A program made the translations under genes and the position numbers. A stretch of DNA of 64,000 nucleotides from assembly GCA_964547425.1 (NCBI GenBank), contig CAZJNH010000002.1, positions 1,028 through 65,027 on the forward strand, written 5' to 3'. The DNA comes from an uncultured Candidatus Saccharibacteria bacterium (lineage in GTDB: Bacteria > Patescibacteriota > Saccharimonadia > UBA4664 > CAZJNH01). Shown here piece by piece: positions 4,708 to 60,528 of the stretch. Below the pieces are notes generated by a model. It was not told where the DNA came from and made no database searches. It worked only from the letters and a program-made list of their open reading frames with translations. Position 1 is the stretch's first letter. Every line of letters starts with the position of its first letter.

Positions 4708-6804
4708 GTGAGAGATTTACTCGACGGCTTAAATGAGCCGCAAAAGCTGGCGGTTTTAACGACCGAAGGGCCGGTTTTAATATTGGCCGGCGCTGGCAGC
4801 GGTAAAACCAAAGCCCTGACCCATCGGGTCGCGTACTTGGTGGCAGAGGGCAAAGCCCAGCCCGACAATATTTTGGCGGTTACCTTTACCAACAAGGCCG
4901 CCGGCGAAATGCGCGAGCGGGTGATGAAGCTGCTCGACCGCCATGCCAGCCGATATTTCTTTCCTTATATGGGCACCTTCCACGCTATTTGCGTCCGGAT
5001 GCTCCGCCGACATGCCGAACTGGTCGGCCTCTCGCCGAGCTTTATTATCTTTGACCAATCCGACAGTTTGGCCGCGATCCGCAAAGCCTCGAAGCAGTTA
5101 GGAATTAACGAAAAAGTTTACGCACCGGGTTTACTGCAAAGCATTATCTCTTCCGCCAAAAACCAGCTGGTGACCCATGGCGATTACAGCCGGCTGGCTC
5201 AAGGGCCGACTCAAACCACGGCGGCCAAGGTTTATCCGCTCTACCACCGGCTGCTGCGTGAAGCCGACGCGCTGGATTTTGACGATTTAATTATGGAGGC
5301 GGTGAGGTTGTTGCAGCACCACCCGGAGGTGTTGGAGCACTGGCAAAAACAGTTCAAATACATTTTGATCGACGAGTATCAGGACACCAACCACGCCCAG
5401 TACCGCTTCACGAAACTTCTAGCCCAGTCGCACCGCAACATCTGCGTGGTCGGTGACGACTGGCAGAGCATTTACTCCTGGCGCGGCGCCGATTTTCGTA
5501 ACATCCTGGATTTTCAAAAAGATTATCCCGATGCCGTAATCATCAAACTTGAACAAAATTATCGCTCAACCAAAAACATCCTCGACGCCGCGCATAGCGT
5601 GATCAGCAAAAACCGGTCGCGCAGCGACAAAAAGCTGTGGACCGAGCAGACCATCGGCGCCCGCGTTGAGGTTCACGAAGTTTACAGCGAAATTCAAGAG
5701 GCTGAATTAATCACCGAGCTGGTCAAACGGGGCATCGCACGCGGCCAAACGCCCCGCGATTTTGCGGTGCTTTACCGGGTTAGCGCGCAGTCAAGGGCGC
5801 TGGAAGAGGCTTTTTTGCGGATCGGTCTGCCATACCGCATCGTCGGCGGCGTCAGGTTTTACGAACGCAAAGAAATTAAAGACACCCTGGCCTATTTGCG
5901 ATTGGCGTACCGGCCTGAGGATATGCTCTCTTTTGAAAGGATTGTGAATGTGCCGGCCCGCGGCCTTGGGGATGTCAGTTTGGGCCGGTTTCAAAGCTTC
6001 AAGCAAAAAGCGGAATTGTCTCTCCTGGCCGCCCTCAGCCGCGCCGACGAAATTGAAGGATTAAGTACCAAAGCCGCCAACAATTTGAAGCAGCTGGGGG
6101 TCCTATTAAATGAACTGGCGAACCGCTCAACGGAGCTGAAGGTCTCCGAACTGCTCGAGCTGATTATCAAAAAAAGCGGTTTTTTGGAGTGGCTAGATGA
6201 CGGCAGTTTACTCGCCGAGGCGAGAATCGAGAATGTTAAAGAGTTGTTGAGTGTGGCCGGTGATTATGACGGCGATTTGGAAGGCTTTTTGCAGGACGTG
6301 GCGTTGATGAGTGAACTCGACGATTACTCGCCGGCCGCCGACGCGGTCACATTGATGACGATGCACGCCGCCAAAGGCTTAGAATTTCCGGTGGTGATTA
6401 TGCCGGGATTGGAAGAGGGAGTGTTCCCGCACGGCCGGGCGCAGGAGGATGCCGAAGAGTTAGAGGAAGAGCGGCGGCTGTGTTACGTCGGCATGACCCG
6501 GGCCAAGCAGCAACTGCATTTAACCTACGCCCGTAAGCGGCTGCTGTATGGCCAAACGATGCACAATCCGCCGTCGCGCTTTTTGCTCGACATTCAACAA
6601 GCCGCAAGCGACCAGCCCACCACAGCGGCTGTTGACGCAAACTTTAAAGCCGTCGAGCTCAAAGACGGTGACCGCGTAAAGCATCCAAAATTTGGGGAGG
6701 GGATCGTTGTTAGTACCAAAGACGATACCGTCACCGCCGCGTTCGCCGGAGTGGGCACAAAGACCCTACTTTTGAGTCTCGCCCCACTTGAAAAGCTTGA
6801 GTAG
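4708..6804 (+). CDS. pcrA: ATP-dependent DNA helicase UvrD/PcrA
   Basis: Walker A GAGSGKT, helicase motifs (DEYQDTN, QNYRST, VTLMTMHAAKGLEFP, YVGMTRAK) and a C-terminal Tudor-like tail; GTG start preceded by TATAAT. Confidence 0.9.
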   Translation: MRDLLDGLNEPQKLAVLTTEGPVLILAGAGSGKTKALTHRVAYLVAEGKAQPDNILAVTFTNKAAGEMRERVMKLLDRHASRYFFPYMGTFHAICVRMLRRHAELVGLSPSFIIFDQSDSLAAIRKASKQLGINEKVYAPGLLQSIISSAKNQLVTHGDYSRLAQGPTQTTAAKVYPLYHRLLREADALDFDDLIMEAVRLLQHHPEVLEHWQKQFKYILIDEYQDTNHAQYRFTKLLAQSHRNICVVGDDWQSIYSWRGADFRNILDFQKDYPDAVIIKLEQNYRSTKNILDAAHSVISKNRSRSDKKLWTEQTIGARVEVHEVYSEIQEAELITELVKRGIARGQTPRDFAVLYRVSAQSRALEEAFLRIGLPYRIVGGVRFYERKEIKDTLAYLRLAYRPEDMLSFERIVNVPARGLGDVSLGRFQSFKQKAELSLLAALSRADEIEGLSTKAANNLKQLGVLLNELANRSTELKVSELLELIIKKSGFLEWLDDGSLLAEARIENVKELLSVAGDYDGDLEGFLQDVALMSELDDYSPAADAVTLMTMHAAKGLEFPVVIMPGLEEGVFPHGRAQEDAEELEEERRLCYVGMTRAKQQLHLTYARKRLLYGQTMHNPPSRFLLDIQQAASDQPTTAAVDANFKAVELKDGDRVKHPKFGEGIVVSTKDDTVTAAFAGVGTKTLLLSLAPLEKLE

Positions 6805-11211: not shown

Positions 11212-11970
11212 ATGCTTATCGATAGCCACGCCCATCTGCATTTTGACCAGTACCGCGACCAGCTCGATGATGTTTTAGAACGATCCAAAGTAGCAGGGGT
11301 GACCAAGATTGTTACCGTGGGTGTGGATGATACCGATAGCCAAGCGGCTGTCGAGCTAGCGGGCCAGCATAATTCTATTTATGCGTCGGTGGGGTTGCAT
11401 CCGCACGAAGCTAAACGGGGCCAGGCGGCGATTGATCGGGTAAAAGCTCTGGCAAAACAACCGAAGGTTGTAGCGATCGGGGAGTGTGGGCTGGATTATT
11501 ACCGCAACCTGTCACCCAAGGATGAGCAGGAAATGGCCCTGCGCCAGCAAATCGAGCTGGCGGGATCTCTTGGGCTTCCAATAATTTTTCATGTCCGCGA
11601 CGCTTTTGCCGACTTCAAACGGATCGTTGCCGACTACCCAGAAGCTAAAGGCATCATTCACAGTTTTAGCGACTCGCCCGAAAACGCGGAGTGGCTAGTG
11701 GGGCGGGGCTTTCTAATCGGATTAAATGGCATTATGACTTTCACTAAGGACGAGGAGCAGTTACGGGCTGCCAAGACTATTCCTCTTGAAAACCTAGTCC
11801 TCGAAACCGATTGTCCATTTTTGTCGCCCGCGCCGAAACGGGGTCAGGTTAATGAACCAGCTAACATCGAGATCATCGCCCGTTTCCTGGCTAGTATCCG
11901 CGGCGAGTCATTCGAAGAGCTAGCCCGTCAAACCACCGCCAACGCCGAAATGCTACTTAAATTGATTTAG
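11212..11970 (+). CDS. tatD: TatD-family metal-dependent DNase/hydrolase
   Basis: N-terminal IDSHAHL motif and conserved His/Asp/Glu pattern of TatD. Confidence 0.85.
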   Translation: MLIDSHAHLHFDQYRDQLDDVLERSKVAGVTKIVTVGVDDTDSQAAVELAGQHNSIYASVGLHPHEAKRGQAAIDRVKALAKQPKVVAIGECGLDYYRNLSPKDEQEMALRQQIELAGSLGLPIIFHVRDAFADFKRIVADYPEAKGIIHSFSDSPENAEWLVGRGFLIGLNGIMTFTKDEEQLRAAKTIPLENLVLETDCPFLSPAPKRGQVNEPANIEIIARFLASIRGESFEELARQTTANAEMLLKLI

Positions 11971-11990
11971 GGGTTGAACCCCTAATATGG
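11964..11990. repeat. REP-like palindrome (family 1, core GGGGTTGAACCCC), left flank of the transposase
   Basis: ATTTAGGGGTTGAACCCCTAATA directly after the tatD stop; recurs at 12521..12549. Confidence 0.8.
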
Positions 11991-12002
11991 TATCCTCGTC
12001 AA

Positions 12003-12557
12003 ATGCCAAGCAAGAATGTGATTCGAGAATTAGCAGCGGGAGAGTATTATCATGTCTTTAATAGGGGTATAGATAAATCTCTCGTCTTTAAAACGAAGAA
12101 TGATTACGGGGTATTTCTTTATTATCTAGAGTCTTTTCTTTCGGACCCTTCGCGCGTTAGCTCATCGAATCCCTACCGAACCAACTATCAAGGCCGGGTA
12201 AGGCTGGTTTGTTATTGCTTAATGCCTAATCATTATCATCTTTTCGTACAGCAAGTAGATGATAATGGCTTACCTGATTTCATGAGGGCATTGGCTAACG
12301 CCTATACGCAATATTTCAATACTACTTACGACAGGGTTGGCCCAGTATTCCAAGGTCGATATAAGGCAGTCCGCATACAGAACGACCCGCACTTTAAAGG
12401 TATTAGTCGGTATATTCACGAGAATCCCAAAGACTTATGTTCTGACTTCCGGAATTATCCATACTCAAGCTATAAGTTTTTTTCTGATAAAGCGCCGGAT
12501 TGGATTCATTTTGGAGAGCTAAAATTAGGGGTTGAACCCCTAATAAAGGCTTTATGA
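12003..12557 (+). CDS. tnpA: IS200/IS605-family Y1 (HuH) transposase-like protein, REP-associated tyrosine transposase (RAYT)-like
   Basis: HuH motif MPNHYHLFVQ and a catalytic Tyr region (GRYKAV), about 184 aa, flanked by direct copies of a palindromic repeat; its C-terminal residues are encoded by the repeat itself. Confidence 0.8.
   Translation: MPSKNVIRELAAGEYYHVFNRGIDKSLVFKTKNDYGVFLYYLESFLSDPSRVSSSNPYRTNYQGRVRLVCYCLMPNHYHLFVQQVDDNGLPDFMRALANAYTQYFNTTYDRVGPVFQGRYKAVRIQNDPHFKGISRYIHENPKDLCSDFRNYPYSSYKFFSDKAPDWIHFGELKLGVEPLIKAL
12521..12549. repeat. REP-like palindrome (family 1), right flank of the transposase
   Basis: AAAATTAGGGGTTGAACCCCTAATAAAGG; direct repeat of the 11964..11990 element. 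Confidence 0.8.
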
Positions 12558-13744
12558 AGCCAGATACACCAGTTTATTTAGATTACGCCGCGGCTACAAC
12601 GCTTGACTCAACGGTCTTAAAAGCGATGCGGCCTTTCCTGAGCGACCGGTTTTACAATCCATCCAGCCTGTATCGAGCGGCGCGAGAGGTTAAAAAAGAG
12701 GTCGAAGCTGCCCGAGCCAGAGTCGCGGCCATATTAGGGGCCAAGCCGACCGAAATTATTTTTACCTCCGGCGCGACCGAAAGCGTTAATCTGGCGATCC
12801 TAGGCACGTCACGCAATTATCCAAAATCCAAAATCCTGGCTTTAGCCACCGAACATCACGCGGTGTTAAATTCGCTCGATGCTTTACATGGCGAAGGTTT
12901 TAAAACGGAGCTAATCCCCGTAGATGCCAAAGGGCGGATCGATTTAGACGCCCTCGAAAAATTAATCGATGACCAAACACTCCTCGTTAGCGTGGCCTAT
13001 GCTAATAACGAGACTGGGACTATTCAGTCTATTAGCCAGATTGCCCAGCTCATTAAAAAGCATCGACTGGCCCGCCAAAAAAGAGGTATCGATTTGCCGC
13101 TATATTTTCATACTGATGCCTCTGCGGCAGCTGCATATTTGCCGTTAAGCGTTGAGAGGCTTGGGGTTGACCTGTTGAGCCTCGGTGGCGGCAAAATCTA
13201 CGGGCCGCCGGGGTCAGGGATTTTATATGCGCGTCGCGGCATCGAGCTTAAACCCTTAACTTACGGTGGCGGGCAGGAAAAAGGCCGGCGATCGGGGACC
13301 GAAGGAGCTGCATTGATTATCGGTTTGGCGGCAGCCCTGGAGCTGACACAAGAACTGCGCCAGCTCGAGGGTGATCGCTTAATGAAACTTCGTGATCTAG
13401 CGATCAGTCGATTGCGCGAAGTCGAGGGCATCGAAATCAATGGCGACCTCAAACACCGGCTGCCAAATAACCTTAATTTTTCCGTTGACGGAACCGACGG
13501 AGAAAGTTTGGTTTTGTATCTGGATGAAGCTGGAGTGCAGGTATCAACCGGCGCCGCCTGCACTACCTCCTCCGCTGAACCTTCTCACGTTTTGTTGGCG
13601 CTGGGGCTATCAAAAGAGCAGGCAAACTCTAATTTAAGGGTGACAATGGGCAGGGGAACAACCGCGGATGATATTGAGTATTTCATCGAAGCTTTGGCCA
13701 AAACGGCCAAGCGGCTAAGAGAAATTGATAGAATAGAGCGATGA
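12554..13744 (+). CDS. cysteine desulfurase (class V aminotransferase, NifS/IscS-like)
   Basis: PLP-lysine region GGGKIYGPPGSGILYARRG and overall class-V fold; start overlaps the tnpA stop. Confidence 0.8.
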   Translation: MKPDTPVYLDYAAATTLDSTVLKAMRPFLSDRFYNPSSLYRAAREVKKEVEAARARVAAILGAKPTEIIFTSGATESVNLAILGTSRNYPKSKILALATEHHAVLNSLDALHGEGFKTELIPVDAKGRIDLDALEKLIDDQTLLVSVAYANNETGTIQSISQIAQLIKKHRLARQKRGIDLPLYFHTDASAAAAYLPLSVERLGVDLLSLGGGKIYGPPGSGILYARRGIELKPLTYGGGQEKGRRSGTEGAALIIGLAAALELTQELRQLEGDRLMKLRDLAISRLREVEGIEINGDLKHRLPNNLNFSVDGTDGESLVLYLDEAGVQVSTGAACTTSSAEPSHVLLALGLSKEQANSNLRVTMGRGTTADDIEYFIEALAKTAKRLREIDRIER

Positions 13745-14325
13745 AGGGTTTTTTGGCTTTAGGCGCGGCTATAGTCCTGACTCTGGCTGCCATAGTATTT
13801 TTTGGCATCGGCTTTTATCTGTCGCCCCAAAGTAAACTCGAGCACGCCGACGCGATCGTGGCGATTAGCGGCGGAGAAACCGATTCGCGAGTTAGTGAAG
13901 CGGTCAAACTTTATAAAGATGGCTGGTCGCACCAGCTGATTTTCTCCGGGGCGGCGCGGGACACCAGCGGGCCTTCCAACGCGTCAGCGATGCGGCGGGA
14001 AGCCGTTAACCTGGGCGTACCGACTACCGACATCACAATCGAAGAAAAATCTACGAGTACCAAGCAAAACGCCGAGTACGTCGGCAGCATCATTAAAGAA
14101 CGAGGTTACAGCAGTATCATTCTGGTTACTTCGCCTTACCACCAGCGGCGGGCCAATCTGGCGTTTCACAAATCGTTGGGCAAAGGCGTGCGAATTATCA
14201 ACCACTCGGCGGTCGACAAAAACTGGCGGCGCTCGAGATGGTGGGCCAATCCGCGCAGTTTCGCTTTGACGGTGGCGGAATTAGCCAAAAACCTGTTTGT
14301 AATAGTGGGCGGTAACCCGGCCTAA
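13741..14325 (+). CDS. DUF218 (YdcF/SanA-like) domain protein with an N-terminal TM
   Basis: ISGGETDSR .. LIFSGAA .. TSTKQNAEY .. LVTSPYHQRRA pattern characteristic of DUF218. Confidence 0.6.
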   Translation: MKGFLALGAAIVLTLAAIVFFGIGFYLSPQSKLEHADAIVAISGGETDSRVSEAVKLYKDGWSHQLIFSGAARDTSGPSNASAMRREAVNLGVPTTDITIEEKSTSTKQNAEYVGSIIKERGYSSIILVTSPYHQRRANLAFHKSLGKGVRIINHSAVDKNWRRSRWWANPRSFALTVAELAKNLFVIVGGNPA

Positions 14326-15287
14326 TGCCTTTCGTCATTTCATTAATCCTGATAGTTATCCTGGCGCTATCCGCCGTGCGCGGCTGGCGATTAGGGCTAG
14401 AGGTATTGGCGGTAGATTTAGGCGGTCTTTTGCTGGCAACGGCAGCCGCCAGCTTAACTTACCTCTTGGTCGCGCGGCTGTTGGCCAAGGTTGGCTCAAT
14501 CCCGGCGGCGTTTGCCAGCTTAGCGGCGTTTTTGCTGGTATGGTTTGGCGTAGAGTTTTTATACCGGTTGGGCATCCACCTGATCGTGGTACGCAAAGTG
14601 GCCCACCTGCCGAACAGCCCTAGTACCGGAAACCGGCTTGGCGGCGCGGCCCTTGGCCTGATGCAAATGTTGCTGGTCGCCTCGCTAAGTCTAATGGTGC
14701 TATTGGCTCTGCCGCTGGGAGGGAACTTTAAAGATAATCTCGGCAAAGCTTTTGTCTCGCGGCAGCTGATCGCGGCCGGTAGCCGTTACCAACAGCAAGT
14801 TAATAACGTCGTCTCAGACCTATCAGAAACGCTCACCTTCTTGACCGTTAAGCCGAAGGGCGAAGAAAGCATTAAGCTCGGTTTCACTACTACGTCGGTG
14901 AGCGTCGATGAGTCGGCTGAGTTGTCGATGCTGGACTTGGTTAACCACGAACGCACCAGCCGGGGATTACAGCCGCTAGTGATGGACGATCAGATCAGAG
15001 AGATCGCCCGCGCGCACTCAAAAGATATGTTTGCCCGGGGTTATTTTTCGCACGTCACCCCCGAAGGATTAGACCCATTCGACCGGATGAGGGCGGGAGG
15101 TATCAAGTTTTTTGCGGCCGGTGAAAACCTTGCCTTGGCTCCTACGCTAGACTTGGCCCACGCCGGGCTGATGAATTCGCCGGGACACCGCGCTAATATT
15201 CTAGAGTCATCGTTCCACCGCGTCGGTATCGGCGTTATCGACGGCGGCATTTACGGCAAAATGTTCACCCAGGACTTTGCCGACTAG
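14325..15287 (+). CDS. CvpA-like membrane N-terminus fused to a CAP/SCP (YkwD-like) domain
   Basis: Three N-terminal TM helices; the C-terminus matches the YkwD family (AHSKDMFARGYFSHVTPEG..DRMRAGG..AGENLA..MNSPGHRANIL). Confidence 0.65.
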   Translation: MPFVISLILIVILALSAVRGWRLGLEVLAVDLGGLLLATAAASLTYLLVARLLAKVGSIPAAFASLAAFLLVWFGVEFLYRLGIHLIVVRKVAHLPNSPSTGNRLGGAALGLMQMLLVASLSLMVLLALPLGGNFKDNLGKAFVSRQLIAAGSRYQQQVNNVVSDLSETLTFLTVKPKGEESIKLGFTTTSVSVDESAELSMLDLVNHERTSRGLQPLVMDDQIREIARAHSKDMFARGYFSHVTPEGLDPFDRMRAGGIKFFAAGENLALAPTLDLAHAGLMNSPGHRANILESSFHRVGIGVIDGGIYGKMFTQDFAD

Positions 15288-15661
15288 CAAAGGTAGGCAT
15301 TCCAGGTGGAACTGCCGCTTGAGACGTGAACCTGCAATGTTGAGCTTGCTCCAGCCGCGTACCTGAACGAGCCGCTGCCGGTACCGAAACTATACCCCAC
15401 GGCAGAACCGGAATTGTAAAGTTTCCAGGACCCGCGAGTGTTGGCTTTGGTGTTCCAGTTGGCGCAAACGTGTGTTTTGCTAGCGTTTCTAAAGCCATGA
15501 GTCCAGGTTACCCCGGCATTGATGACAACTCCGCCTGACGCGAAAGTAGTAATTAATAAGCCGACCCCCAGAAGTAGTGCGAGTGCAAAAATTGAAACTC
15601 CGACGACCTTTTTGGGGATGCTCGGACGTTTAATTAATCCGTTTATGCCTTTTTTCGCCAA
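15284..15661 (-). CDS. small secreted protein of unknown function
   Basis: 125 aa with a signal anchor, Gly/Ser-rich, two Cys; convergent with the cvpA-CAP gene. Confidence 0.4.
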   Translation of the reverse strand: MAKKGINGLIKRPSIPKKVVGVSIFALALLLGVGLLITTFASGGVVINAGVTWTHGFRNASKTHVCANWNTKANTRGSWKLYNSGSAVGYSFGTGSGSFRYAAGASSTLQVHVSSGSSTWNAYLC

Positions 15662-15776
15662 AAATATCTCCTTTTTTTGTTTTTGAAATTAATGCTTATG
15701 CTTTAGATTAACGGCCGTAACAGGGGAAGTCAATGTTGTCGACAGGTGTAGGCCAGGGCGGTAAAATAACTAGCTG

Positions 15777-16823
15777 ATGAAGACAGTTTACGTTGGATTA
15801 TCCGGAGGGGTCGACAGCTCGGTGGCCGCGGCGCTTCTGCTGCAGCAAGGTTACCGGGTGGTTGGCGTATATATGAAAAACTGGACCGCTTCGGTCGGAG
15901 GCGTCGATTGCCCTTGGCAGCAGGACCTAACCGACGCACGGGCTGCCGCGGCAAAACTCGATATTCCGTTCAAGGTTTTTGATTTCCAGGAGCAGTATCG
16001 CGACAGGGTGGTCGAATATATGATCGAGGGCTATAAAAGCGGCCAAACGCCTAATCCCGACATTATGTGCAACCAGGAGATCAAATTTAAGTTGTTTTTG
16101 GATGCCGCATTGGCCGACGGGGCCGATCTAATCGCCACCGGCCACTACGCTCGGCTCAAAGACGGCCAATTGCTCAAAGCCGTCGATGAGTCAAAGGACC
16201 AAACTTACTTCCTTTATAGAGTCACCAAGCACGCACTCGAGAAAACTTTGATGCCGATCGGTGAGCTGCGCAAAACCGAAGTACGAAAATTAGCTAAACA
16301 ATTTAATTTGCCGACCGCCGATAAACCCGATTCGCAAGGCATTTGTTTTATTGGAGAGGTCAGTATTAAAGATTTCCTGTCGGAGTACGTTAAGGCCAAG
16401 CCCGGTTCGATTATGCTCGGTGATGAGGTAATAGGCGAACATCATGGCGCAATTTTCTACACCATCGGCCAGCGCCACGGTTTGCATCTGGGAATCGGCA
16501 AGCCGCTGTGGGTGATTGGCAAGGATATGAAATCCAATACCGTTTTAGTCACCGACAAACCTCAAGATCTGGAGTTGTTCACCAAAGAGTTCGTAATTGA
16601 AGACATCCATTGGATCGACGAAGAGCCGGTTTCCGGTAATAAATATCAGGTTCATACCCGTTATCGAGACGAACTTAAAGATTGTGAGATCGATGGCAGC
16701 ACTATCAAGATGAACCGGACTGAGAGAGCGGTGACCCCCGGGCAATCGGCGGTGATTTATGACGGTGAAAAAGTCCTGGGCGGTGGCGTGATTACCGTAA
16801 AACGCTTAGCTAAAGTAAAATAA
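15777..16823 (+). CDS. mnmA: tRNA-specific 2-thiouridylase
   Basis: PP-loop SGGVDSSV, CNQEIKF and C-terminal MnmA domains. Confidence 0.9.
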   Translation: MKTVYVGLSGGVDSSVAAALLLQQGYRVVGVYMKNWTASVGGVDCPWQQDLTDARAAAAKLDIPFKVFDFQEQYRDRVVEYMIEGYKSGQTPNPDIMCNQEIKFKLFLDAALADGADLIATGHYARLKDGQLLKAVDESKDQTYFLYRVTKHALEKTLMPIGELRKTEVRKLAKQFNLPTADKPDSQGICFIGEVSIKDFLSEYVKAKPGSIMLGDEVIGEHHGAIFYTIGQRHGLHLGIGKPLWVIGKDMKSNTVLVTDKPQDLELFTKEFVIEDIHWIDEEPVSGNKYQVHTRYRDELKDCEIDGSTIKMNRTERAVTPGQSAVIYDGEKVLGGGVITVKRLAKVK

Positions 16824-16828
16824 GGCTA

Positions 16829-18631
16829 ATGACTACCAACGAATTGCGGTCGAAATATCTGGAGTTTTTTAAATCCAAAAGGCACACCATCATCCCTTCA
16901 GCGCCGATAGTGCCGGAGCATGATCCGACGACGCTGTTTAACAGCGCCGGCATGCAGCCATTGGTTCCGAATTTGCTGGGCGAGCCCCATCCTGCAGGCA
17001 AACGAATCGCCGACGTCCAGAAATGTTTGCGCACCACCGACATCGACGAGGTTGGGGACGAAACCCACCTAACAATGTTTGAGATGCTGGGCAACTGGAG
17101 CTTTGGCGATTACTTCAAAAAAGAGTCGATCGCGATGAGCTGGGAGTTTTTGACCGACCCAAAGTGGCTGGGGATTGATCCGAAAAAGCTATATATCACA
17201 GTTTATGAAGGTGACGCGGAGGTGCCTAAGGATTCTGAATCGGTTGAGTATTGGCAGGAACATTTTAAGTCCGTCGGTATGGACGCCAAAGAAGGGGAGC
17301 GGATCATTGCGCTGGGCAAGGACGACAACTGGTGGGAGCAGGGCGGGGTAGAGACTGGTCCCGCGGGTCCAGATACTGAAATTTTTTATTACCTGGGAGA
17401 TGAGGAAAATCCAAAGTTCGAGTATGCGGACCAATCCAAGTACGTCGAAATTTGGAATAACGTCTTTTTAACCTATCAGCGCCAAAAAGAGGGCGGCTAC
17501 AAAGAGCTGGAACAGAAAAACGTCGATACCGGTATGGGAGTTGAGCGTACCGCCGCCGCTTTGGAGGGAGTTAAAACCGTCTACGACACCGATCTACTGA
17601 GTCAAATCGGCTATACAATCACCGGACTAGCTAGCGAGGAGTTTGACCAAGTATTCCTTGAGACCGATCAAAACATGGGCAGGGCGATTCGGATTATCAC
17701 CGACCATCTGCGGGCAGCCACTTTCTTGGCGGCGGATGGAGTCCAACCCAGCAACACCGAGCAAGGCTACGTTATGCGACGGCTAATGCGCCGGGCGATT
17801 CGCCAGGGACTGGTGCTTGGGATTAAATCCGGCTTGAGCGAGACCGTCGGCGTTAAAGTAATCGAATTATACGGCGAGGTTTATTCGGAATTAACAGATC
17901 AGCAGAACCTCATTTTGGACATTCTCACAAAGGAAGAAGAACAGTTTAGAAAAACGCTGGATCGCGGGGTGCGTGAGTTCACCCGGGAGGTCAAAGATAA
18001 ACTAACCGGCGAAACCGCCTTTCGGTTGTTTGATACGTATGGCTTCCCCCCGGAGTTGTCGGTCGAGGATGCTAAACGGTTAAATATTCCGATTGATCCG
18101 AACTGGGACGAAGATTTTCAGCGGCTGATGAATGAGCAAAAAGAACGCTCGCGGACCGCGACCGCCGGCGTCTTTAAGGGTGGCCTAGCCGATCATTCTG
18201 AGCAGGTGACCAAGTACCACACCGCTAATCATTTGATGTACGCGGCGCTTCGACACGTACTCGGCAATCATGTTATTCAGCGAGGCTCGAACATCACCGA
18301 AGAAAGATTAAGGTTTGATTTTTCACATACCGAAAAAGTCACGCCCGAACAACTCAAAGAAGTTGAAGAGATCGTTAACCACCAGATTCATCGCGATTTG
18401 CCGGTGACGATGGAGGAATTACCAACCCAAGATGCCTTTGCGGCTGGCGCCATCGGTGCGTTTGGCGATAAATACGGCGACACCGTGAAGGTCTACACTA
18501 TCGGCGACTTTAGCAAAGAAATCTGCGGCGGCCCGCACGTAGAACAAACCGGCGTCCTTGGCCACTTCAAAATAACCAAAGAAGAATCCTCCTCTGCCGG
18601 CGTCCGCCGCATCAAAGCCACCCTAGCCTAA
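16829..18631 (+). CDS. alaS: alanyl-tRNA synthetase, short form (catalytic plus editing core, no C-Ala domain)
   Basis: Class II AlaRS N-terminus, editing-domain HxxxH (HTANHLMYAALRH) and CGGPHV; only 600 aa. Confidence 0.85.
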   Translation: MTTNELRSKYLEFFKSKRHTIIPSAPIVPEHDPTTLFNSAGMQPLVPNLLGEPHPAGKRIADVQKCLRTTDIDEVGDETHLTMFEMLGNWSFGDYFKKESIAMSWEFLTDPKWLGIDPKKLYITVYEGDAEVPKDSESVEYWQEHFKSVGMDAKEGERIIALGKDDNWWEQGGVETGPAGPDTEIFYYLGDEENPKFEYADQSKYVEIWNNVFLTYQRQKEGGYKELEQKNVDTGMGVERTAAALEGVKTVYDTDLLSQIGYTITGLASEEFDQVFLETDQNMGRAIRIITDHLRAATFLAADGVQPSNTEQGYVMRRLMRRAIRQGLVLGIKSGLSETVGVKVIELYGEVYSELTDQQNLILDILTKEEEQFRKTLDRGVREFTREVKDKLTGETAFRLFDTYGFPPELSVEDAKRLNIPIDPNWDEDFQRLMNEQKERSRTATAGVFKGGLADHSEQVTKYHTANHLMYAALRHVLGNHVIQRGSNITEERLRFDFSHTEKVTPEQLKEVEEIVNHQIHRDLPVTMEELPTQDAFAAGAIGAFGDKYGDTVKVYTIGDFSKEICGGPHVEQTGVLGHFKITKEESSSAGVRRIKATLA

Positions 18632-18633
18632 CC

Positions 18634-18700
18634 CACCTTGTACTTTTCTAACCTGAAAAGGGTTACACCCTTAACAGATAAGCAAATTACATGTTTTTTG
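18634..18700. repeat. REP-like palindromic element, family 2 (copy A)
   Basis: CCTTGTACTTTTCTAACCTGAAAAGGGTTACACCCTTAACAGATAAGCAAATTACATGTTTTTT; one of five copies in the window. Confidence 0.8.
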
Positions 18701-18728
18701 GAAAAATTGACTCAAATTAATTAATGAA

Positions 18729-19394
18729 TTGCGGTTGTTTACTTGGGCAAGTAAAGCGGTTATGCTTTTGATTATGAAAATTATCAAAGATCAGCGCGGT
18801 TTCGCTCTTGTCCTCGAGTTTATTCTGGTGGCCGCGGTCGCGCTCGTCATTGGCGCCGTCGGTTATCGGTATTGGCAGAATAAGCATAAGGCTGCCCCAG
18901 TGACAACCGAAAAGAAAGCTGAAGCGCCGAAAGCTGCCCCGAAACCGACCACAATTTCAGAGAGAACGTTTACACTGACCCTACCGGTAGGCTGGAAAGC
19001 GGGTCACGCCAATGATCCCAAGATAGGTAATGGGTACTTCAGGCAGTGCCGAGCAGTGCCGAATGCGGAAGTGCCCGAGTACGACTACTGTTATGAGGAC
19101 AAATCCGGCAACTTCTTTGATGTCTTAGTAGACCCGGGCGGTAGAGAAATCGGGAACGACGTCGTATGGACACTATCCAAGACCACAGCCGGGTTCAAGA
19201 TTGCGTCTGAAAGTAAGATATGTAAGGTGGGAGAATTCACTTGCGAAGCTGGTGATGGGAGGTTCCATATCTATATGCCTGGTGGGTTACATACCGGGCA
19301 TAACTATTTTTTCGAAGCAGGTAATATCGAGAAAGAAACAGGAGTAAGCGACCAGGTATATCGCGACATCCTAGCTAGCTTCAAAGTAAAATAA
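18729..19394 (+). CDS. type IV pilin-like protein (prepilin-type N-terminus), possibly a pseudopilin
   Basis: N-terminus KDQRGFALVLEFILVAAVALVIG resembles the prepilin leader, with Gly, hydrophobic residues and Glu near +5/+6; C-terminal region with four Cys; the true start may be an internal Met. Confidence 0.5.
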   Translation: MRLFTWASKAVMLLIMKIIKDQRGFALVLEFILVAAVALVIGAVGYRYWQNKHKAAPVTTEKKAEAPKAAPKPTTISERTFTLTLPVGWKAGHANDPKIGNGYFRQCRAVPNAEVPEYDYCYEDKSGNFFDVLVDPGGREIGNDVVWTLSKTTAGFKIASESKICKVGEFTCEAGDGRFHIYMPGGLHTGHNYFFEAGNIEKETGVSDQVYRDILASFKVK

Positions 19395-19426
19395 AGCCCG
19401 CCTAGAAGTTAGGGAGCATAAGCGGT

Positions 19427-19450
19427 AAAATGGGGGTTGACCCTAACTAA
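19427..19450. repeat. solo REP-like palindrome (family 1 variant, GGGGGTTGACCC)
   Basis: AAAATGGGGGTTGACCCTAACTAAA overlapping the annotated ftsA start. Confidence 0.55.
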
Positions 19451-20735
19451 ACGCAGGGCTGGTTTGAAGTTACTGAAAAAATTTAAATCGAAATCGGCCG
19501 AAGCTACTACTAAGGAATACCTGGTCGCGCTTGATATTGGCACCGAATTTGTTAAAGCGTTAGTAGGTAAAATCACCGAGCCGGACCGGGTCGAAATTAT
19601 TGGCGCCGGCCGGCAAAGGCAGCGGCTGACCGACATGCAAGGCGGAACGGTGACCGATATTGCCGGAGTCGTCGAGAATTGTGACGCAGCACTCAAGGCT
19701 GCCGAAAAAATGAGCGGCGTGGTGGCTAAGGATGTTGTAATTGGAATTGCCGGCGAATTAGTCAAAGGTACTTCAACTACTGTTCGTTACAAACGCAATA
19801 AACCCGAAAACCCGATTGAAATGGATGAACTGCGCCGCATCCTCGACCGCGTCCAGTACCGGGCGTTTGAAAAAGCCCGCGAGACTTTGCAGTGGGAGAC
19901 GGGGGACAAGGACGTCGAGGTCAAACTGGTAAACACCGCCATCGTCGACGTTAAAATCGATGGCTACCGGGTGACCAACCCAATCGGTTTCCAGGGCAAA
20001 GACGTCAGCATCCAATTGTTTTGCGCCTTTGCGCCGATGGTCCACCTTGGTGCCCTGCAATCCGTCGCCGCCAATCTGGACCTCAACCTTATCAACATCG
20101 CCGCTGAACCTTTCGCGGTCGCCAAATCGGTCGGCGAAGAAGAATCGAGCGAATTTTCGGCTATTTTCATCGACGTCGGCGGCGGCACGACCGACATAGC
20201 GCTGGTTAACAATGGCGGCGTTGAAGGCACCAAAATGTTCGCCATCGGCGGCCGCAGCTTCACCAAGCGCATCGCCCAGGTTACCGGCCAAAGCTTTGAG
20301 GCCGCCGAAAAACTCAAACTCGAATATTCGGCTGGCAAATTAACCTCGGCTAAGGCCCGCGAACAGGTGGAAGAAGCGGTCAACTCCGATATCAAAGTTT
20401 GGCTTTCCGGAGTTGAATTAAGCCTCGCCGAATTCAACAAAATCGACCACCTGCCATCAAAAGTTTTGCTCTGCGGCGGCGGCTCCGGTTTGCCTCAAAT
20501 TATGCACTCACTCAAAAACTCGAGCTGGTACAAAAACCTGCCGTTTGCCCGCAAACCGATCGTCCGCCACATCGCTCCCGCCGAAGTTACCCGGGTCATC
20601 GATAAGACCGGCCAGCTCGTGAGCTACGCCGACATTACCCCGATGGGTCTGGCTAACCTCGGTTTAGATGTTATAAATACTGGTAGCGTGACAGAATCAA
20701 TTATTTCCAAATTAGCCAAAGCGGTCTCGGCATGA
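19437..20735 (+). CDS. ftsA: actin-like cell division ATPase FtsA
   Basis: Phosphate-1 motif LVALDIGTEFVK, GGGTTDIA, C-terminal amphipathic helix; a basic 25-aa N-terminal extension makes the start uncertain. Confidence 0.75.
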   Translation: MTLTKRRAGLKLLKKFKSKSAEATTKEYLVALDIGTEFVKALVGKITEPDRVEIIGAGRQRQRLTDMQGGTVTDIAGVVENCDAALKAAEKMSGVVAKDVVIGIAGELVKGTSTTVRYKRNKPENPIEMDELRRILDRVQYRAFEKARETLQWETGDKDVEVKLVNTAIVDVKIDGYRVTNPIGFQGKDVSIQLFCAFAPMVHLGALQSVAANLDLNLINIAAEPFAVAKSVGEEESSEFSAIFIDVGGGTTDIALVNNGGVEGTKMFAIGGRSFTKRIAQVTGQSFEAAEKLKLEYSAGKLTSAKAREQVEEAVNSDIKVWLSGVELSLAEFNKIDHLPSKVLLCGGGSGLPQIMHSLKNSSWYKNLPFARKPIVRHIAPAEVTRVIDKTGQLVSYADITPMGLANLGLDVINTGSVTESIISKLAKAVSA

Positions 20736-22342
20736 ACCATACTTTGTATCTGGAAGCCGACGAAGACATTACCTCGGCGATCGACAAGCTGTCCCAAGCT
20801 GAAGGCCACGAAGTCAGGCTCGTCGTGCCCAAACGATCAGGGTTACTTTCAAGTGTCATCAATTTGAAGTTACTAAAAAAGGCCGCCCACGACGGTAAAA
20901 AGAAGTTGGTACTAGTGACCACCGATTCCGCAGTTGTAAACCTGGCCAGCCGGGTTGGTTTGGCGGTGGCTGAGAATGTAAAAGCTGACGCTGAAGTACC
21001 CAATCTCGCGGCCGAAACTCCGGTTGCCGACGCCGCCGACGTCATTGAAGAGGATGAGCCCTTCGACTCCGCTCAGGGCAAGCCCGAAGAGTTAGCGCCC
21101 GAACCGGTCATCGCCAGCCGCCCTGTACCGGATGATGGGCCAGTTGAGGACGCCGTTCCAGATGAACCAGCCAAAAAACCTAAAGGCAAAGGCCTAAAGG
21201 TGCCCGATTTTGGCAGTTTCCAGAAGCGATTACTCCTCGGCGGCGGAGTTGTCGCGGCGATTATCGCGCTCTATCTGCTGAATTTCTTCTTCAAGTCCGC
21301 GGACATTACTATTTTCGCCAAGGGCGCTCAAATTCCGAGCGAAACTAGCTTCAAGGCCGTAGAGGGCGCTGAAGCCGACCCTAAAGCCGGCGAAGTTTCT
21401 ACAACCACCCTGACCGACTCCAAAGACGCTTCGGACTCCTTTACCGCGACCGGCAAAAAAGACGTCGGCACCAAGGCCAAGGGGTCCGTCAGCATCAAAA
21501 ACTGTGACGACACCAGCGCCCATTCCTTCGCGGCTGGCTCGAAGGTGACTTCTCAAGGCAAAACCTTCGCGACCGCATCGACGGTCACTATCCCCGCGGG
21601 CTCGTTTTCCGGCGGAGGAACGATCTGTAATTCGACAACCGTATCGGTTAACGTTACCGCTACAGCAAACGGTGACAGTTATAATTTAGCCCCGGCATCC
21701 TATAGCAGTCCAAGCCTAAACTCCAACTACAAAATAAGCGGAGAACAGATGAGTGGCGGTACCTCAAAGATACTAAGCGTCGTTACCGCGACCGACGTCA
21801 GCGCCGCCAAGGCCAAGCTGGCCGCTGCCGACGACAGCATCAAAAAAGACCTGGCCCAAAAAGCTACTTCCGACCAAATCGCCGCCAAAAGCACCTTTAA
21901 CGCTTCGGTCGCCGATCTGACTCCCAACCCTGCCGTAGGGGCCGAAGGCAACACCTTTACCTTGTCGGGTACCATCAAATACACCATGCTGGCGGTCGAC
22001 AAAAAAGGCTTAGAGGAGCTAATTAATGAAGATGTGGGTGCCAAGATCGGAAAAGATAACCAAATCTATGACACCGGCGCCGCTACTGCCGACATTACCC
22101 CGACCGGTGCCAAAAATACCTACAGCGTTAAAACCACCGTCTTCGCCGGCGCCAAGCTGGACCAAACCAAAATCAAAGCCGTCATTAAAGGTAAAAAACT
22201 GGGCGCGGCCGGTGACGAAATCGAAAAACTGGCCGGCGTCGACAAGGCCGAAATCAGCTTGTCACCCTTCTGGGTGGCGACCGTCCCGCGGATCACCTCA
22301 CATATCCATATTAAGATCAAGGTCGTCCAGGCCGGCGGCTAA
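20732..22342 (+). CDS. membrane-anchored protein: about 90-aa N-terminal cytoplasmic domain, acidic/Pro linker, one TM, Thr/Ser/Ala-rich extracytoplasmic domain; translationally coupled to ftsA
   Basis: ATGA overlap with the ftsA stop; hydrophobic helix LLLGGGVVAAIIALYLL; low-complexity external domain; no recognisable family. Confidence 0.45.
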   Translation: MNHTLYLEADEDITSAIDKLSQAEGHEVRLVVPKRSGLLSSVINLKLLKKAAHDGKKKLVLVTTDSAVVNLASRVGLAVAENVKADAEVPNLAAETPVADAADVIEEDEPFDSAQGKPEELAPEPVIASRPVPDDGPVEDAVPDEPAKKPKGKGLKVPDFGSFQKRLLLGGGVVAAIIALYLLNFFFKSADITIFAKGAQIPSETSFKAVEGAEADPKAGEVSTTTLTDSKDASDSFTATGKKDVGTKAKGSVSIKNCDDTSAHSFAAGSKVTSQGKTFATASTVTIPAGSFSGGGTICNSTTVSVNVTATANGDSYNLAPASYSSPSLNSNYKISGEQMSGGTSKILSVVTATDVSAAKAKLAAADDSIKKDLAQKATSDQIAAKSTFNASVADLTPNPAVGAEGNTFTLSGTIKYTMLAVDKKGLEELINEDVGAKIGKDNQIYDTGAATADITPTGAKNTYSVKTTVFAGAKLDQTKIKAVIKGKKLGAAGDEIEKLAGVDKAEISLSPFWVATVPRITSHIHIKIKVVQAGG

Positions 22343-22346
22343 ATCT

Positions 22347-22730
22347 ATGAATCTACTGGGGATAGATTACGGCTACAAACGGGTAGGGCTGGCTTTCGGC
22401 AGCGACGAAACCAAAGCCGCCGAACCGCTTGAAACCCTGGTCAATGACGACGGCCTACTTACTCGTTTGCGCCAAATTATCTCTGACCGCAATGTTGGTA
22501 AGTTAGTCGTTGGTTTGCCTCGCGGCCTGGAGGGCCAACCAACCCAGCAAACCCGGGTGGTAGAGGAGTTTGTCGCCCAGGTTCTTTCCGAACTACAGAT
22601 ACCTATCGAAACCGTTGACGAGGCGGTCACTAGCGAGGTTGCCAGACAAACCGTTGGCCCGGCTGCCCCCAAAACGGCGGTTGATGCCGAAGCCGCCGCG
22701 ATCATTTTGCGGGATTATCTGAATCAGTGA
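22347..22730 (+). CDS. ruvX: Holliday junction resolvase-like protein RuvX/YqgF
   Basis: N-terminus MNLLGIDYGYKRVGLAFG typical of YqgF; the ORF-track entry 22026..22730 carries a spurious upstream extension. Confidence 0.8.
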   Translation: MNLLGIDYGYKRVGLAFGSDETKAAEPLETLVNDDGLLTRLRQIISDRNVGKLVVGLPRGLEGQPTQQTRVVEEFVAQVLSELQIPIETVDEAVTSEVARQTVGPAAPKTAVDAEAAAIILRDYLNQ

Positions 22731-23722
22731 AGTTCACCAAGCGACATATTCTCATAGTGTCAGCCGCGGCGGCCGGCTTACTATTGCTCAGCGGTATCAC
22801 CTGGTACGAAGTCAGCCTGCGCCCGCCAAACGCCAGCGACCATTCGGCGGTCAGCTTTGAGTTGCCTAAAGGTGAAAAAAGCACTGAGACCGCCAGCCGC
22901 CTGGAAAAGGCCCAGTTAATTCGGGACGAACACGCCTTTTTAATCTTTATCATCATCCACGGCATTCGCGCCAAACTGCAGGCCGGCAGTTACTCGCTGT
23001 CGCCATCACATTCGGCCAGCGATGTCGCCGCGATCTTGAGCCAGGGCAAAATCTCGACCAATCTGCTGATAATTCCGGAGGGCAAAAACCTTAGCCAAAT
23101 CATTAAACTGGCCGAAGCCAAAGGCATACAATCGGCCGACATGAAAGCGGCACTAGCAAAGCAGTACGGTTACAGTTTCCTTAAGGGCGCTCCAGGTTTA
23201 GAGGGGTATCTCTTCCCCGATAGTTATCAAGTCAACAAAAAGACAACGGCTAGCGATTTAGTAAACGACATGCTCGCCAACTTTGCCCAAAAAGTGCCGG
23301 CAAAGTTCACCCCGCTATTCAAACGCCAGGGTTTGAGTCTGCATGATGGGTTAATTCTGGCCTCGATGATCGAGAAGGAGGTTAATACCGCCGCCGATCG
23401 GCCCAAAGTCGCCCAAGTTTTCCTGCGCCGGCTCAGGATTGGGATGGCGCTGGAGTCCGACACCACCGTAGAGTACGCGGCTGCCCAACTGGGCTTAGCT
23501 TTCAGTATCGACCTGGACTCGCCTTACAACACCTACAGCCACACCGGATTGCCGCCCGGGCCAATTTCAAATCCTGGACTATCCGCTCTTCAGGCAGTCG
23601 CCAATCCGGCTAAAACCAACTACCTATACTTCGTTACCGGGCGCGACGGCAAGACTCGTTTCGCTGTGACTTTTTCCCAGCACCAAGCCAATATTGCTCG
23701 GTACGGCTTGATCAGCCGATAA
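22727..23722 (+). CDS. mltG: endolytic murein transglycosylase MltG (YceG-like)
   Basis: N-terminal TM then the YceG domain; conserved Glu region (ASMIEKE). Confidence 0.8.
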   Translation: MKFTKRHILIVSAAAAGLLLLSGITWYEVSLRPPNASDHSAVSFELPKGEKSTETASRLEKAQLIRDEHAFLIFIIIHGIRAKLQAGSYSLSPSHSASDVAAILSQGKISTNLLIIPEGKNLSQIIKLAEAKGIQSADMKAALAKQYGYSFLKGAPGLEGYLFPDSYQVNKKTTASDLVNDMLANFAQKVPAKFTPLFKRQGLSLHDGLILASMIEKEVNTAADRPKVAQVFLRRLRIGMALESDTTVEYAAAQLGLAFSIDLDSPYNTYSHTGLPPGPISNPGLSALQAVANPAKTNYLYFVTGRDGKTRFAVTFSQHQANIARYGLISR

Positions 23723-23768
23723 GGGAATTGACACTACTGACACCGATTGCTAAACTTACCTTCGTATA

Positions 23769-24980: not shown

Positions 24981-24985
24981 TTTTG

Positions 24986-25111
24986 AAAAAAGGTCTGACT
25001 CTTTTTAACTGAAAGGGTTCGACCCTAAACAAACTATGTAACTAACGTTTAGATGAAGAAGGGTCGAACCCTAGTCAAGCCATGGGTTGTGCAGGGTCAG
25101 ACCTTTTTTAG
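24986..25111. repeat. nested inverted-repeat (REPIN-like) element: outer 14-bp IR AAAAAAGGTCTGAC/GTCAGACCTTTTTT enclosing the inverted pair GGGTTCGACCC/GGGTCGAACCC
   Basis: Read directly from the sequence; the inner repeats are related to the family-1 REP core; sits between the CHAP gene and obg. Confidence 0.8.
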
Positions 25112-25131
25112 CTTGCAACAGGTATAATTAG

Positions 25132-26388
<1,257 letters not shown>

Positions 26389-42806: not shown

Positions 42807-42870
42807 ACATGTATTTTTCTAACCTGTTAAGGGTGTAACCCTTAACAGGTTAGTCGATTACAAGGTTTCC
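42807..42870. repeat. REP-like palindromic element, family 2 (copy B), contains the perfect 16-bp-stem hairpin CTAACCTGTTAAGGGT-GTA-ACCCTTAACAGGTTAG
   Basis: Read directly; the stop codon of the adjacent transposase lies inside the hairpin. Confidence 0.85.
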
Positions 42871-43461
42871 TAGTAACGGTTTAGAGTCTCGGATTAAACC
42901 CTCATGGAAGTCAGAAAACTCCATAGAGCCTGAAAACAGGCTAAGAACATCGATATGCTTCAACCACCGTGGAGCATGTCCTAACACGAAATAACGGTAG
43001 CTTGAATACGGGTATCGCAGGTAGCTCAACCTGATAGTTTGGGGATTTAGATGGATGTAACGGGTCAAGTGCATAATTTGCTCGTCTGATTCTGCGAGAA
43101 CCGCTTTATATGTCCCCTGAAACAAACTCCCGACGCGGTTGTGCCTCGTATTGAAATACATTGCATATTTGGTCCCAATAGATTTCATTAACTTCGTAAT
43201 ACCTTCAGCCGTGTTTTGCCTGACGAGCAAATGAAAATGATTGGGCATCAAGCAATACGCTAAAAGATCGATTTCTTTACTTAGTTCCGGCAAGTTGTCG
43301 GGCCGTTTTTTTTGATCCGGGTCCAAATAAAGTTTCAGATAGCCTAGAAACACTCGATAATCTTGGTCGTCCATGAAGATATCACGTTTTTCAACACCTC
43401 GGTTGTAGATGTGGTAGTACCCGCCCTCTTGATATTGCTTGATAGTATTACGGCTTGGCAT
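42850..43461 (-). CDS. tnpA: IS200/IS605-family Y1 (HuH) transposase-like protein (RAYT-like), second paralog
   Basis: HuH motif MPNHFHLLVRQ, GTYKAV Tyr region; about 55% identical to the 12003..12557 product; flanked by family-2 REP copies B and C. Confidence 0.8.
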   Translation of the reverse strand: MPSRNTIKQYQEGGYYHIYNRGVEKRDIFMDDQDYRVFLGYLKLYLDPDQKKRPDNLPELSKEIDLLAYCLMPNHFHLLVRQNTAEGITKLMKSIGTKYAMYFNTRHNRVGSLFQGTYKAVLAESDEQIMHLTRYIHLNPQTIRLSYLRYPYSSYRYFVLGHAPRWLKHIDVLSLFSGSMEFSDFHEGLIRDSKPLLGNLVID

Positions 43462-43476
43462 CGGTGTATCAATATA

Positions 43477-43546
43477 ACGTGTATTTTCCTAACCTGTAAA
43501 GGGTTACACCCTTAACAGATGGGTGAAATACAAGGTTAGGTTTTGT
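43477..43546. repeat. REP-like palindromic element, family 2 (copy C)
   Basis: AACGTGTATTTTCCTAACCTGTAAAGGGTTACACCCTTAACAGATGGGTGAAATACAAGGTTAGG. Confidence 0.85.
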
Positions 43547-49707: not shown

Positions 49708-49782
49708 TCGGGTGTGGCCAAGCGGTAAGGCGCCTGCCTCTGGAGCAGGAAATCGTAGGTTCGAATCCTACCACCCGAGCCA
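49708..49782 (+). tRNA. tRNA-Gln (anticodon CUG)
   Basis: Acceptor TCGGGTG/CACCCGA, anticodon stem CCTGC/GCAGG with loop CTCTGGA, T-loop TTCGAAT, encoded CCA. Confidence 0.8.
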
Positions 49783-49855
49783 AAGGTTATTATTGTAATC
49801 CCCTGAAGTTGACACGAATTTGTTTCAACACTAGAGTTTAAAAAGGATTATTCTT

Positions 49856-55815: not shown

Positions 55816-55882
55816 AAACTTGTATTTCTCTAACCTGAAAAGGGTTACACCCTTAACAGATTGGGAAATTACAAGGTTTGGC
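55816..55882. repeat. REP-like palindromic element, family 2 (copy D)
   Basis: AAACTTGTATTTCTCTAACCTGAAAAGGGTTACACCCTTAACAGATTGGGAAATTACAAGGTTTGG. Confidence 0.85.
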
Positions 55883-60457: not shown

Positions 60458-60528
60458 TCCAAACCTTGTATTTTCCCTATCTGTTAAGGGTGTAACCCTT
60501 TTCAGGTTAGAGAAATACATGTTTTTGG
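60458..60528. repeat. REP-like palindromic element, family 2 (copy E, inverse orientation relative to copy D)
   Basis: CCAAACCTTGTATTTTCCCTATCTGTTAAGGGTGTAACCCTTTTCAGGTTAGAGAAATACATGTTTTTGG. Confidence 0.85.

Follow-up and report, generated by a model that had tools for sequence, protein, structure and literature searches.

To our knowledge, systems that pair an HUH transposase with repetitive extragenic palindromic (REP) hairpins have been characterized almost entirely in Proteobacteria and Cyanobacteria. The gene described here lies in a 64-kb stretch of contig CAZJNH010000002.1, from an uncultured Candidatus Saccharibacteria bacterium; we refer to that stretch as the window, to the gene at 12003..12557 (forward strand) and its product as W1, and to a paralogous gene at 42850..43461 (reverse strand) and its product as W2. 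The described systems closest to W1 are TnpA-REP of E. coli (RayT or YafM; subclass 2.2, Bertels Group 2), whose gene is bracketed by cognate hairpins in a REPtron; the TIRYTs, low-copy genes with divergent paralogs in each genome, every one having its own flanking repeat in a TIRtron (PMC3733652); TnpA of IS200/IS605 insertion sequences (IS) such as IS608 and ISDra2 (subclass 1.1); and subclass 2.4, the only one for which in-gene REP insertion has been described (PMC6006769). Quentin et al. (2018) equate their subclass 2.1 with RAYT Group 1 of Bertels and, tentatively, with the TIRYTs (PMC6006769; PMC5581495; PMC3733652). Here we propose, with a probability of roughly 0.65, that W1 and its flanks (~11965 to 12545) form a REPtron- or TIRtron-like unit of ~580 bp, in which the product of a subclass-2.1-like HUH gene acts on the hairpins bracketing the gene, and which has hardly spread in the window.

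The open reading frame (ORF), Pfam match, alignment and structural model of W1 identify a protein of 184 aa as a class-2 TnpA-Y1 (RAYT/TIRYT-like) HUH protein. The HuH motif NHYH occupies residues 76-79 (nucleotides 12228-12239), as a first-pass annotation of this DNA had noticed; the tyrosine motif YIHENP spans residues 137-142 (12411-12428) and places Y137 at the catalytic position, the SS motif falls at residues 155-156 (YPYSSY), and an FQ motif lies within VFQGRYKA. These motifs, and the consensus of the family, match the second of the signatures listed for subclass 2.1 (NH[YF]H / FQ / Y[IV]HLNP / SS; Table 1 of PMC6006769), with FQ replacing W. Pfam assigns Y1_Tnp at 36.4 bits (cutoff, 23) and no second domain, and REP_Tyr_transpos (NF047646; 45.8 bits) is the sole NCBIfam family retrieved with an E-value of 0.01 or less. 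In an alignment of 30 sequences (A1) W1 retains 27 of 27 family-invariant residues, among them H77, H79 and Y137. The AlphaFold (AF2) model (pLDDT 88.3, pTM 0.85) is closest among PDB folds to 4er8, E. coli TnpA-REP with a bound REP hairpin (E 6.7e-7, TM 0.57/0.62), followed by TnpA of ISDra2, IS608 and IS200 (including 2xm3 and 2vju); PDB matches obtained from sequence only were marginal. The features that define the class 2 TnpA-Y1 core, namely the HUH motif, a single tyrosine in Y---NP and an IS200-like fold, are all found in W1, which we regard as an ordinary member of this known class (RAYT or TnpA-REP sensu lato), in agreement with the RAYT-like label it had first received. A role as a defence-system protein was considered and set aside (PADLOC gave no match), as was a phage-borne family, a single weak relative (32% identity) having been found in 2.9 million viral contigs.

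The likeness to each described protein is nevertheless partial. TnpA-REP of E. coli is both the best structural match and the only NCBIfam match of W1 and shares the HUH and Y---NP core, but is only 15% identical, with W1 falling below the NCBIfam cutoff. The TIRYT or subclass 2.1 proteins carry a C-terminal helix-turn-helix-like domain and have a median length of 238 aa, in contrast to the 184 aa and lone Y1_Tnp domain of W1. Proteins of subclass 2.4 have the motifs WQ and YIxNNP, and IS200/IS605 TnpA, while sharing the HUH fold, has Y---Q in place of Y---NP and consists of the core only (~150 aa), whereas W1 has extra N- and C-terminal segments.

Both sides of W1 bear an exact 21-nt direct repeat, TTAGGGGTTGAACCCCTAATA, at 11967..11987 and 12525..12545 on the forward strand and in the same orientation. 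Each copy is itself palindromic, with a stem of 8-10 bp, so that the sequence can be read as a direct or as an inverted repeat (20 nt, 95% complementary). In the left copy the palindrome covers 11967-11985, with TTGAA at its centre on the coding strand, and both copies present TTGAA and a 3' TA on the same strand. Folding as single-stranded DNA yields -6.7 and -7.8 kcal/mol for the two copies (z about -3). The repeats are built into the adjoining genes: tatD ends on a TAG (11968-11970) that lies within the left copy, and the right copy lies in frame inside the 3' end of W1, where it encodes the LGVEPLI part of the C-terminal residues ..KLGVEPLIKAL; the W1 stop TGA then overlaps the ATG of the desulfurase gene as ATGA (12554-12557). 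The first-pass annotation had described both this coding right-hand copy with its overlapping stop and a flanking palindrome distinct from that of the paralog, and on these points it agrees with our analysis, the W2 palindrome being a different one.

A chance origin of the repeat was rejected: the 13-mer core of TTAGGGGTTGAACCCCTAATA occurs, at up to two mismatches, only at the two flank sites in the window, where perfect hairpins with stems of at least 8 bp number only ~17. Intrinsic terminators were likewise discounted, as a T-tract is missing and a terminator scan did not pick up the hairpins, and so was a known RNA family, Rfam giving no match across 11500-26000. As a separate observation, stop codons are often furnished by palindromes of this kind (TAG or TAA within TTAGGGG, TAAAAGG or AGCTAAAAAGG), both at 11968-11970 and at gene ends of homologue loci L176, L208 and L210, serving either the upstream host gene (here tatD) or the Y1 gene itself.

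In several respects these flanks resemble those of TIRtrons, which also have G-rich repeats (GGGG...) that are self-complementary in part or in full and belong to small families only. TIRtrons, however, have terminal inverted repeats in place of the compact, perfect, direct hairpins of W1, and GGGGTTGA of W1 is not an exact fit to the TIRYT motif GGGGWSAS, one position being different. In the E. coli REPtron the gene is again bracketed by cognate hairpins, but as inverted REP pairs with a GT[AG]G guide, belonging to a high-copy family of a kind not seen for W1 in the 64 kb; at W1 the flanking copies are single and direct, with no inverted, REPIN-like pair. The IS200/IS605 elements share hairpins near both ends on the same strand, a small unit (~0.6-0.7 kb) and no obvious target duplication on insertion. 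They differ in occurring as several near-identical copies per genome, whereas W1 is single-copy, with no tnpB and no identical copies found.

Comparison with relatives identifies the unit as an insertion. The nearest relatives found keep the order metRS-tatD-desulfurase-DUF218, the gene downstream of W1 (ATG at 12554) encoding a class-V aminotransferase of the cysteine desulfurase-like type. In the two closest (L082 and L083, with TatD 74% and 67% identical) tatD directly precedes the desulfurase gene, with gaps of 18 and 28 nt and no Y1 unit, bearing out the earlier proposal of an insertion between these two genes. The synteny comparison that had been suggested with it further revealed other cargo at the junction: a small gene (5745-6067) in L084 (TatD 60%), an unrelated ORF of 208 aa, unmatched in Pfam (5762-6388), in L086 (TatD 62%) and, in L085, a second contig with the same TatD as L084, an HTH_3 gene called right after tatD (1781-2032). 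The Y1 unit is absent from the junction in the four readable relatives (L082, L083, L084 and L086), and the junction is variable among relatives, a recurrent landing site. At this locus a Y1 unit of ~580 bp (~11965-12545) has been inserted into the normally 18-28-nt spacer of a conserved operon, and hairpin, gene and hairpin clearly arrived as a block; its exact boundaries and target site are not readable from the relatives, the closest TatD being only 74% identical and the spacers unalignable.

The composition of W1 is foreign to its surroundings. Its GC content is 40.5%, and 39.5% at third codon positions (GC3), in comparison with 51-55% and 51-66% for its neighbours, and no other 555-nt stretch of the window has a lower GC content (0.08th percentile). 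A GC3 so far below that of the neighbours, in the most AT-rich segment of the window, argues against long residence, and the unit is missing from all four readable relatives; we therefore do not retain the earlier view of a long-resident element as opposed to a recent insertion. W1 is plausibly co-transcribed with the operon, and now probably transcribed mainly with it, since it lies on the same strand as its neighbours with no terminator between, and since both the ATGA overlap and a Shine-Dalgarno-like AAAGG before the desulfurase ATG are present, the latter within the retained operon spacer (AAAGGCTTT; 12546..12557, forward strand, including the ATGA). The unit has entered an essential-looking operon without breaking it. 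For this locus the result mainly tidies the annotation: W1 is a RAYT/TIRYT-type HUH gene, neither an IS200 copy nor, as far as the window shows, the hub of a REP family.

That last point rests on a census of the W1 palindrome in the window, set beside that of W2. A REP family belonging to W1, with a solo copy near 19427..19450 and an inverted pair within 24986-25111, had been claimed from the first inspection, together with the census that might reveal it. No intact solo copy of the W1 palindrome exists in the window. The site near 19427, ATGGGGGTTGACCCTAA (19430..19446, forward strand, in an intergenic spacer), departs from the palindrome by two substitutions and two deletions, folds weakly (z -1.07), and is of a match quality expected by chance ~0.4 times per window, so that its standing as a degenerate solo copy is possible but at chance level. 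With no intact solos and a degenerate site no better than chance, a W1 REP family is not demonstrated in the window: the system has hardly spread, with no more than one decayed solo besides the pair of flank copies.

The pair within 24986-25111 is built on another palindrome, AGGGTTCGACCCT, which is closer to the family of W2 than to that of W1. This intergenic element of ~125 nt consists of two nested inverted pairs, the outer AAAAAAGGTCTGAC/GTCAGACCTTTTTT and the inner AGGGTTCGACCCT with its reverse complement AGGGTCGAACCCT, and folds into a long hairpin (-30 kcal/mol, z -6.1) with no match in Rfam. It is REPIN-like, of a third palindrome type, with no cognate Y1 gene in the window.

W2 presents a different picture. 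Full-length at 203 aa, it is 41% identical to W1 over 169 aa, less than the ~55% first estimated, and its GC3 (49.5%) is less extreme. Its flank unit of ~60 nt forms an imperfect hairpin with the core AAGGGTKWMACCCTT and the consensus ..TGTATTTTTCTAACCTGAAAAGGGTTACACCCTTAACAGAT..AAATTACAAGG, and occurs in five copies, two as flanks (42819-42853 and 43493-43517) and three as solos (18653-18676, 55835-55858 and 60479-60504). Unlike the W1 repeat, that of W2 makes up a genuine REP-like family, small and dispersed; the W2 flank hairpins are inverted in the loop, whereas those of W1 are direct. Neither gene contains an internal copy of its palindrome. The contrast of an unspread W1 repeat with a spread W2 repeat is consistent with W1 being the more recent arrival, with impairment through loss of its C-terminal tail (described below), or with both. 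With a full-length, partly ameliorated W2 that has dispersed repeats and a tail-less, AT-rich W1 whose repeat is unspread, this one genome may offer a natural experiment on the requirements for hairpin spread by these proteins.

The pairing of gene and hairpin seen at W1 extends to its relatives. A protein search with W1 retrieved 2,298 homologues, all the named ones from Patescibacteria; the best non-self match is 48% identical, and the W1 protein cluster is a singleton, as are most clusters of the family. From 80 genome loci with homologues, all in metagenome-assembled genomes largely labelled Patescibacteria, we scanned 73 Patescibacteria genes (W1 and W2 included) and 215 control ORFs of the same loci for a hairpin common to a 150-nt stretch before the ATG and the surroundings of the stop. 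Such a hairpin occurred on both sides of 50 of the 73 family genes, against 10 of the 215 controls (Fisher 5e-28). Median start positions are -51 nt relative to the ATG for the upstream hairpin and +10 nt after the stop for the downstream hairpin, and 12 of the downstream hairpins extend into the gene. The hairpins are gene-specific variations on a common theme (...AAGG/GGGG, a 3-5-nt centre, CCTT/CCCC...), and wherever a contig has two paralogs (such as L003/L005 and L046/L050) their palindromes differ. Flank orientation is direct in 30 of the 50 genes, inverted in 15 and ambiguous in five.

The nearest homologues, P0002 and P0003 (48% identical to W1 and 58% to each other), are flanked by AAAAGGTTGAACCTTTT, written AAAAGGTT(G/C)AACCTTTT, which has the centre GGTTGAACC in common with the W1 palindrome; the copies lie at 2945-2972 and 3634-3661 in L208 and at 2197-2215 and 2877-2895 in L210. 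Both genes stand, in different genomes, immediately 3' of the dihydrofolate reductase gene (folA). The common GGTTGAACC centre together with the same position points to co-inheritance of protein and hairpin, and to vertical persistence in the P0002/P0003 lineage.

A metagenome scan with the 17-mer TAGGGGTTGAACCCCTA returned at least 120 matches, which by a rough estimate, the collection size in bases not being given, is about what chance would produce, and the scan was discarded as a test of copy number. Among the matches listed are four Y1 genes flanked by identical TAGGGGTTGAACCCCTA. TTGAA lies on the coding strand in four of four gene-proximal upstream copies and in both downstream copies of this type; one gene has an inverted upstream doublet and one a different downstream palindrome. 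Their proteins are 42-45% identical to W1, no closer than the family average. Many of the matches listed (L087-L206) are embedded in longer perfect stems (such as cactTAGGGG..CCCCTAagtg) or in doublets with TAGGGGTCCGACCCCTA; a palindrome of this type seems to be a widespread repeat of environmental genomes, in most cases with no Y1 gene closer than 300 nt.

By analogy with TnpA of IS608 and ISDra2 and with E. coli TnpA-REP (PMC3479197; PMC8266576), the W1 protein would bind its own hairpin in single-stranded DNA, and would cleave and rejoin DNA beside it through Y137, with H77 and H79 holding the metal and, as expected of any HUH transposase, a covalent 5'-phosphotyrosine intermediate. Such cleavage and rejoining may have mobilized the hairpins and also, on one or more occasions, the complete hairpin-gene-hairpin unit; the direct, same-strand placement of the W1 hairpins is the arrangement needed for excision or insertion of a whole unit. 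In a more speculative vein, the upstream hairpin, which overlaps a promoter in many homologues, may double as an operator.

Several observations weigh against a REPtron- or TIRtron-like unit. The 45.8 bits of W1 do not reach the equivalog cutoff of 80 for REP_Tyr_transpos. No canonical 5' GT[AG]G tetranucleotide stands at the foot of either hairpin, where ..TTGAT precedes TTAGGGG on one side and ..TAAAA precedes it on the other. Quentin et al. reported no REP-like hairpins for subclass 2.1 (PMC6006769), unlike the Patescibacteria clade, in which ~two thirds of the genes have them, and the mixed flank orientation among these genes fits neither a strict IS200 nor a strict REPtron layout. No multi-copy family of the W1 palindrome is demonstrated, in a census covering 64 kb only. 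Moreover, W1, at 184 aa, is the shortest in the set of 73 analysed genes, whose median is 219, and it is missing a C-terminal tail of ~35 residues (YxxFVE...LxLD) that is conserved in W2 and most other members of alignment A1; on both counts it may be inactive. Other short forms stopping right after the conserved tryptophan were found in P0066, P0070, P0082 and P0094. The truncated C-terminus might have arisen by use of an internal palindrome as an alternative right end, although no homologue has an internal copy at that position.

In the relatives of W1 the palindromes are mobile. In some homologue loci further copies, single or in doublets, lie a few kb away at most, and in 14 of the 50 genes the gene's own flank palindrome recurs inside the coding sequence, in frame and exact (0-1 mismatch in 15), compared with 17 of 2,450 cross-comparisons (Fisher 5e-17). 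The internal copies occur at two spots, codons ~52-65 (before HuH) and ~146-171 (between YIHxNP and YSSY), both loop regions in the W1 model, and encode peptides such as KVRP, TRSDLV and KGPSF. Six exact 15-mers fall within 1 kb in locus L013 (3970-4957), against an expectation of 0.03, and L002 (3969-4725) has four sites; in-gene copies were also found in L004, L007, L020, L027, L034, L038, L040, L049, L065, L068, L080 and L081. This pattern implies that in-gene palindromes have probably undergone repeated self-insertion or gene conversion. It recalls subclass 2.4, as does the in-frame right palindrome at the W1 C-terminus, although the internal copies of the W1 family lie before HuH and after the tyrosine motif and not between them, and W1 has none.

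Upstream hairpins also coincide with promoters. A sigma-70-like promoter is overlapped by 19 of 50 upstream hairpins and 2 of 50 downstream, TTGACA often forming the left arm of the upstream palindrome and TATAAT following the right arm (as in L002, L004, L010, L011, L013, L020, L037 and L043, and in the window at 11962-12002 and 43462-43520). The -10 hexamer in these homologues ends 5-12 nt (mode 6) before the ATG, a spacing that suggests leaderless transcripts and possible autoregulation. Upstream of W1 the sigma-70 scan called no promoter, the match being sub-threshold; a putative weak extended -10 there, TG-G-TATCCT (11988-11996), stands 6 nt before the ATG (element and spacer, 11988..12002, forward strand) and has the same geometry.

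These family-level features invite a broader reading, which we advance tentatively and hold to be somewhat improbable as a whole: that W1 is one member of an undescribed, Patescibacteria-wide, subclass-2.1-like clade, in which a single gene-specific palindrome is used in four ways, as unit boundary, as promoter spacer or -35 of a leaderless mRNA, as in-frame insert in two surface loops, and as low-copy dispersed repeat. Under this reading, up to six identical copies in 1 kb, around genes only ~45% identical, would reflect a process, still under way and driven by the encoded protein, of re-insertion or gene conversion. Each unit would then be a self-targeting, self-regulating element of single-stranded DNA, neither a classical IS nor a classical REP system. 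Independently of this reading, a large clade of HUH genes with promoter-embedded and in-gene hairpins, residing in the very small genomes of the Candidate Phyla Radiation (CPR), would extend the HUH/REP picture and offer compact hairpin-protein pairs for biochemistry. Literature searches combining RAYT or TnpAREP with Patescibacteria, Saccharibacteria or CPR found nothing relevant, and a clade with this family-level hairpin, the in-gene copies and the promoter features may be new.

Three other explanations of the W1 locus are possible, each less well supported than a REPtron- or TIRtron-like unit. The likeliest of the three takes the palindromes to be mainly regulatory, the upstream copy an operator within the promoter and the downstream copy an mRNA 3' hairpin or insulator, and the protein a domesticated host factor that binds or nicks single-stranded DNA. 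The bias of overlap toward upstream hairpins, with the -10 close before the ATG, would be expected on this account, as would the single-copy, divergent paralogs within genomes and the conserved genomic position of P0002 and P0003. It leaves unexplained, however, why an identical 3' copy is kept in two thirds of the genes, and how exact in-frame internal copies, dispersed solos and doublets arose; the hairpins lack the T-tract of terminators and were not called as such, and the promoter match at W1 itself is sub-threshold. We consider a purely regulatory role unlikely.

A shade less probable still is an autonomous, still active IS of the IS200/IS605 type, the same-strand hairpins being its ends and the whole unit moving by peel-and-paste. 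Direct hairpins as in IS608, the presence or absence of the unit at the junction among relatives, the foreign composition of W1, and a fold matching TnpA of IS608 and ISDra2 could all be so explained. The tyrosine motif, however, is of the class 2 type (Y---NP), TnpA-IS200 having Y---Q; no second copy, identical or near-identical, exists, and the one paralog, with a different palindrome, is 41% identical; database clusters are singletons with at most 48% identity to anything else; tnpB is absent; and W1 lacks the conserved C-terminal tail. The retention of P0002 and P0003, 58% identical, after folA in different genomes furthermore implies vertical inheritance. The least likely of the three, a decaying relic in which a truncated, inactive transposase gene between fossil hairpins stays open only because of chance or of a coupling of its translation with that of the desulfurase gene, would account for the short, tail-less protein, for a palindrome that is unspread while that of the full-length W2 has spread, and for the weakness of any promoter of its own, but is at odds with the intact catalytic motifs and 27 of 27 invariant residues in an uninterrupted ORF, with the confident model (pLDDT 88), with two 21-nt copies that are still identical, and with the recurrence of similar short forms in other lineages.

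Elsewhere in the window, a second patch of low GC content (~42%) extends over 49708-50668, where a 270-aa membrane-anchored ORF lies directly 3' of a tRNA-Gln gene (49708-49782) and may constitute a small island.

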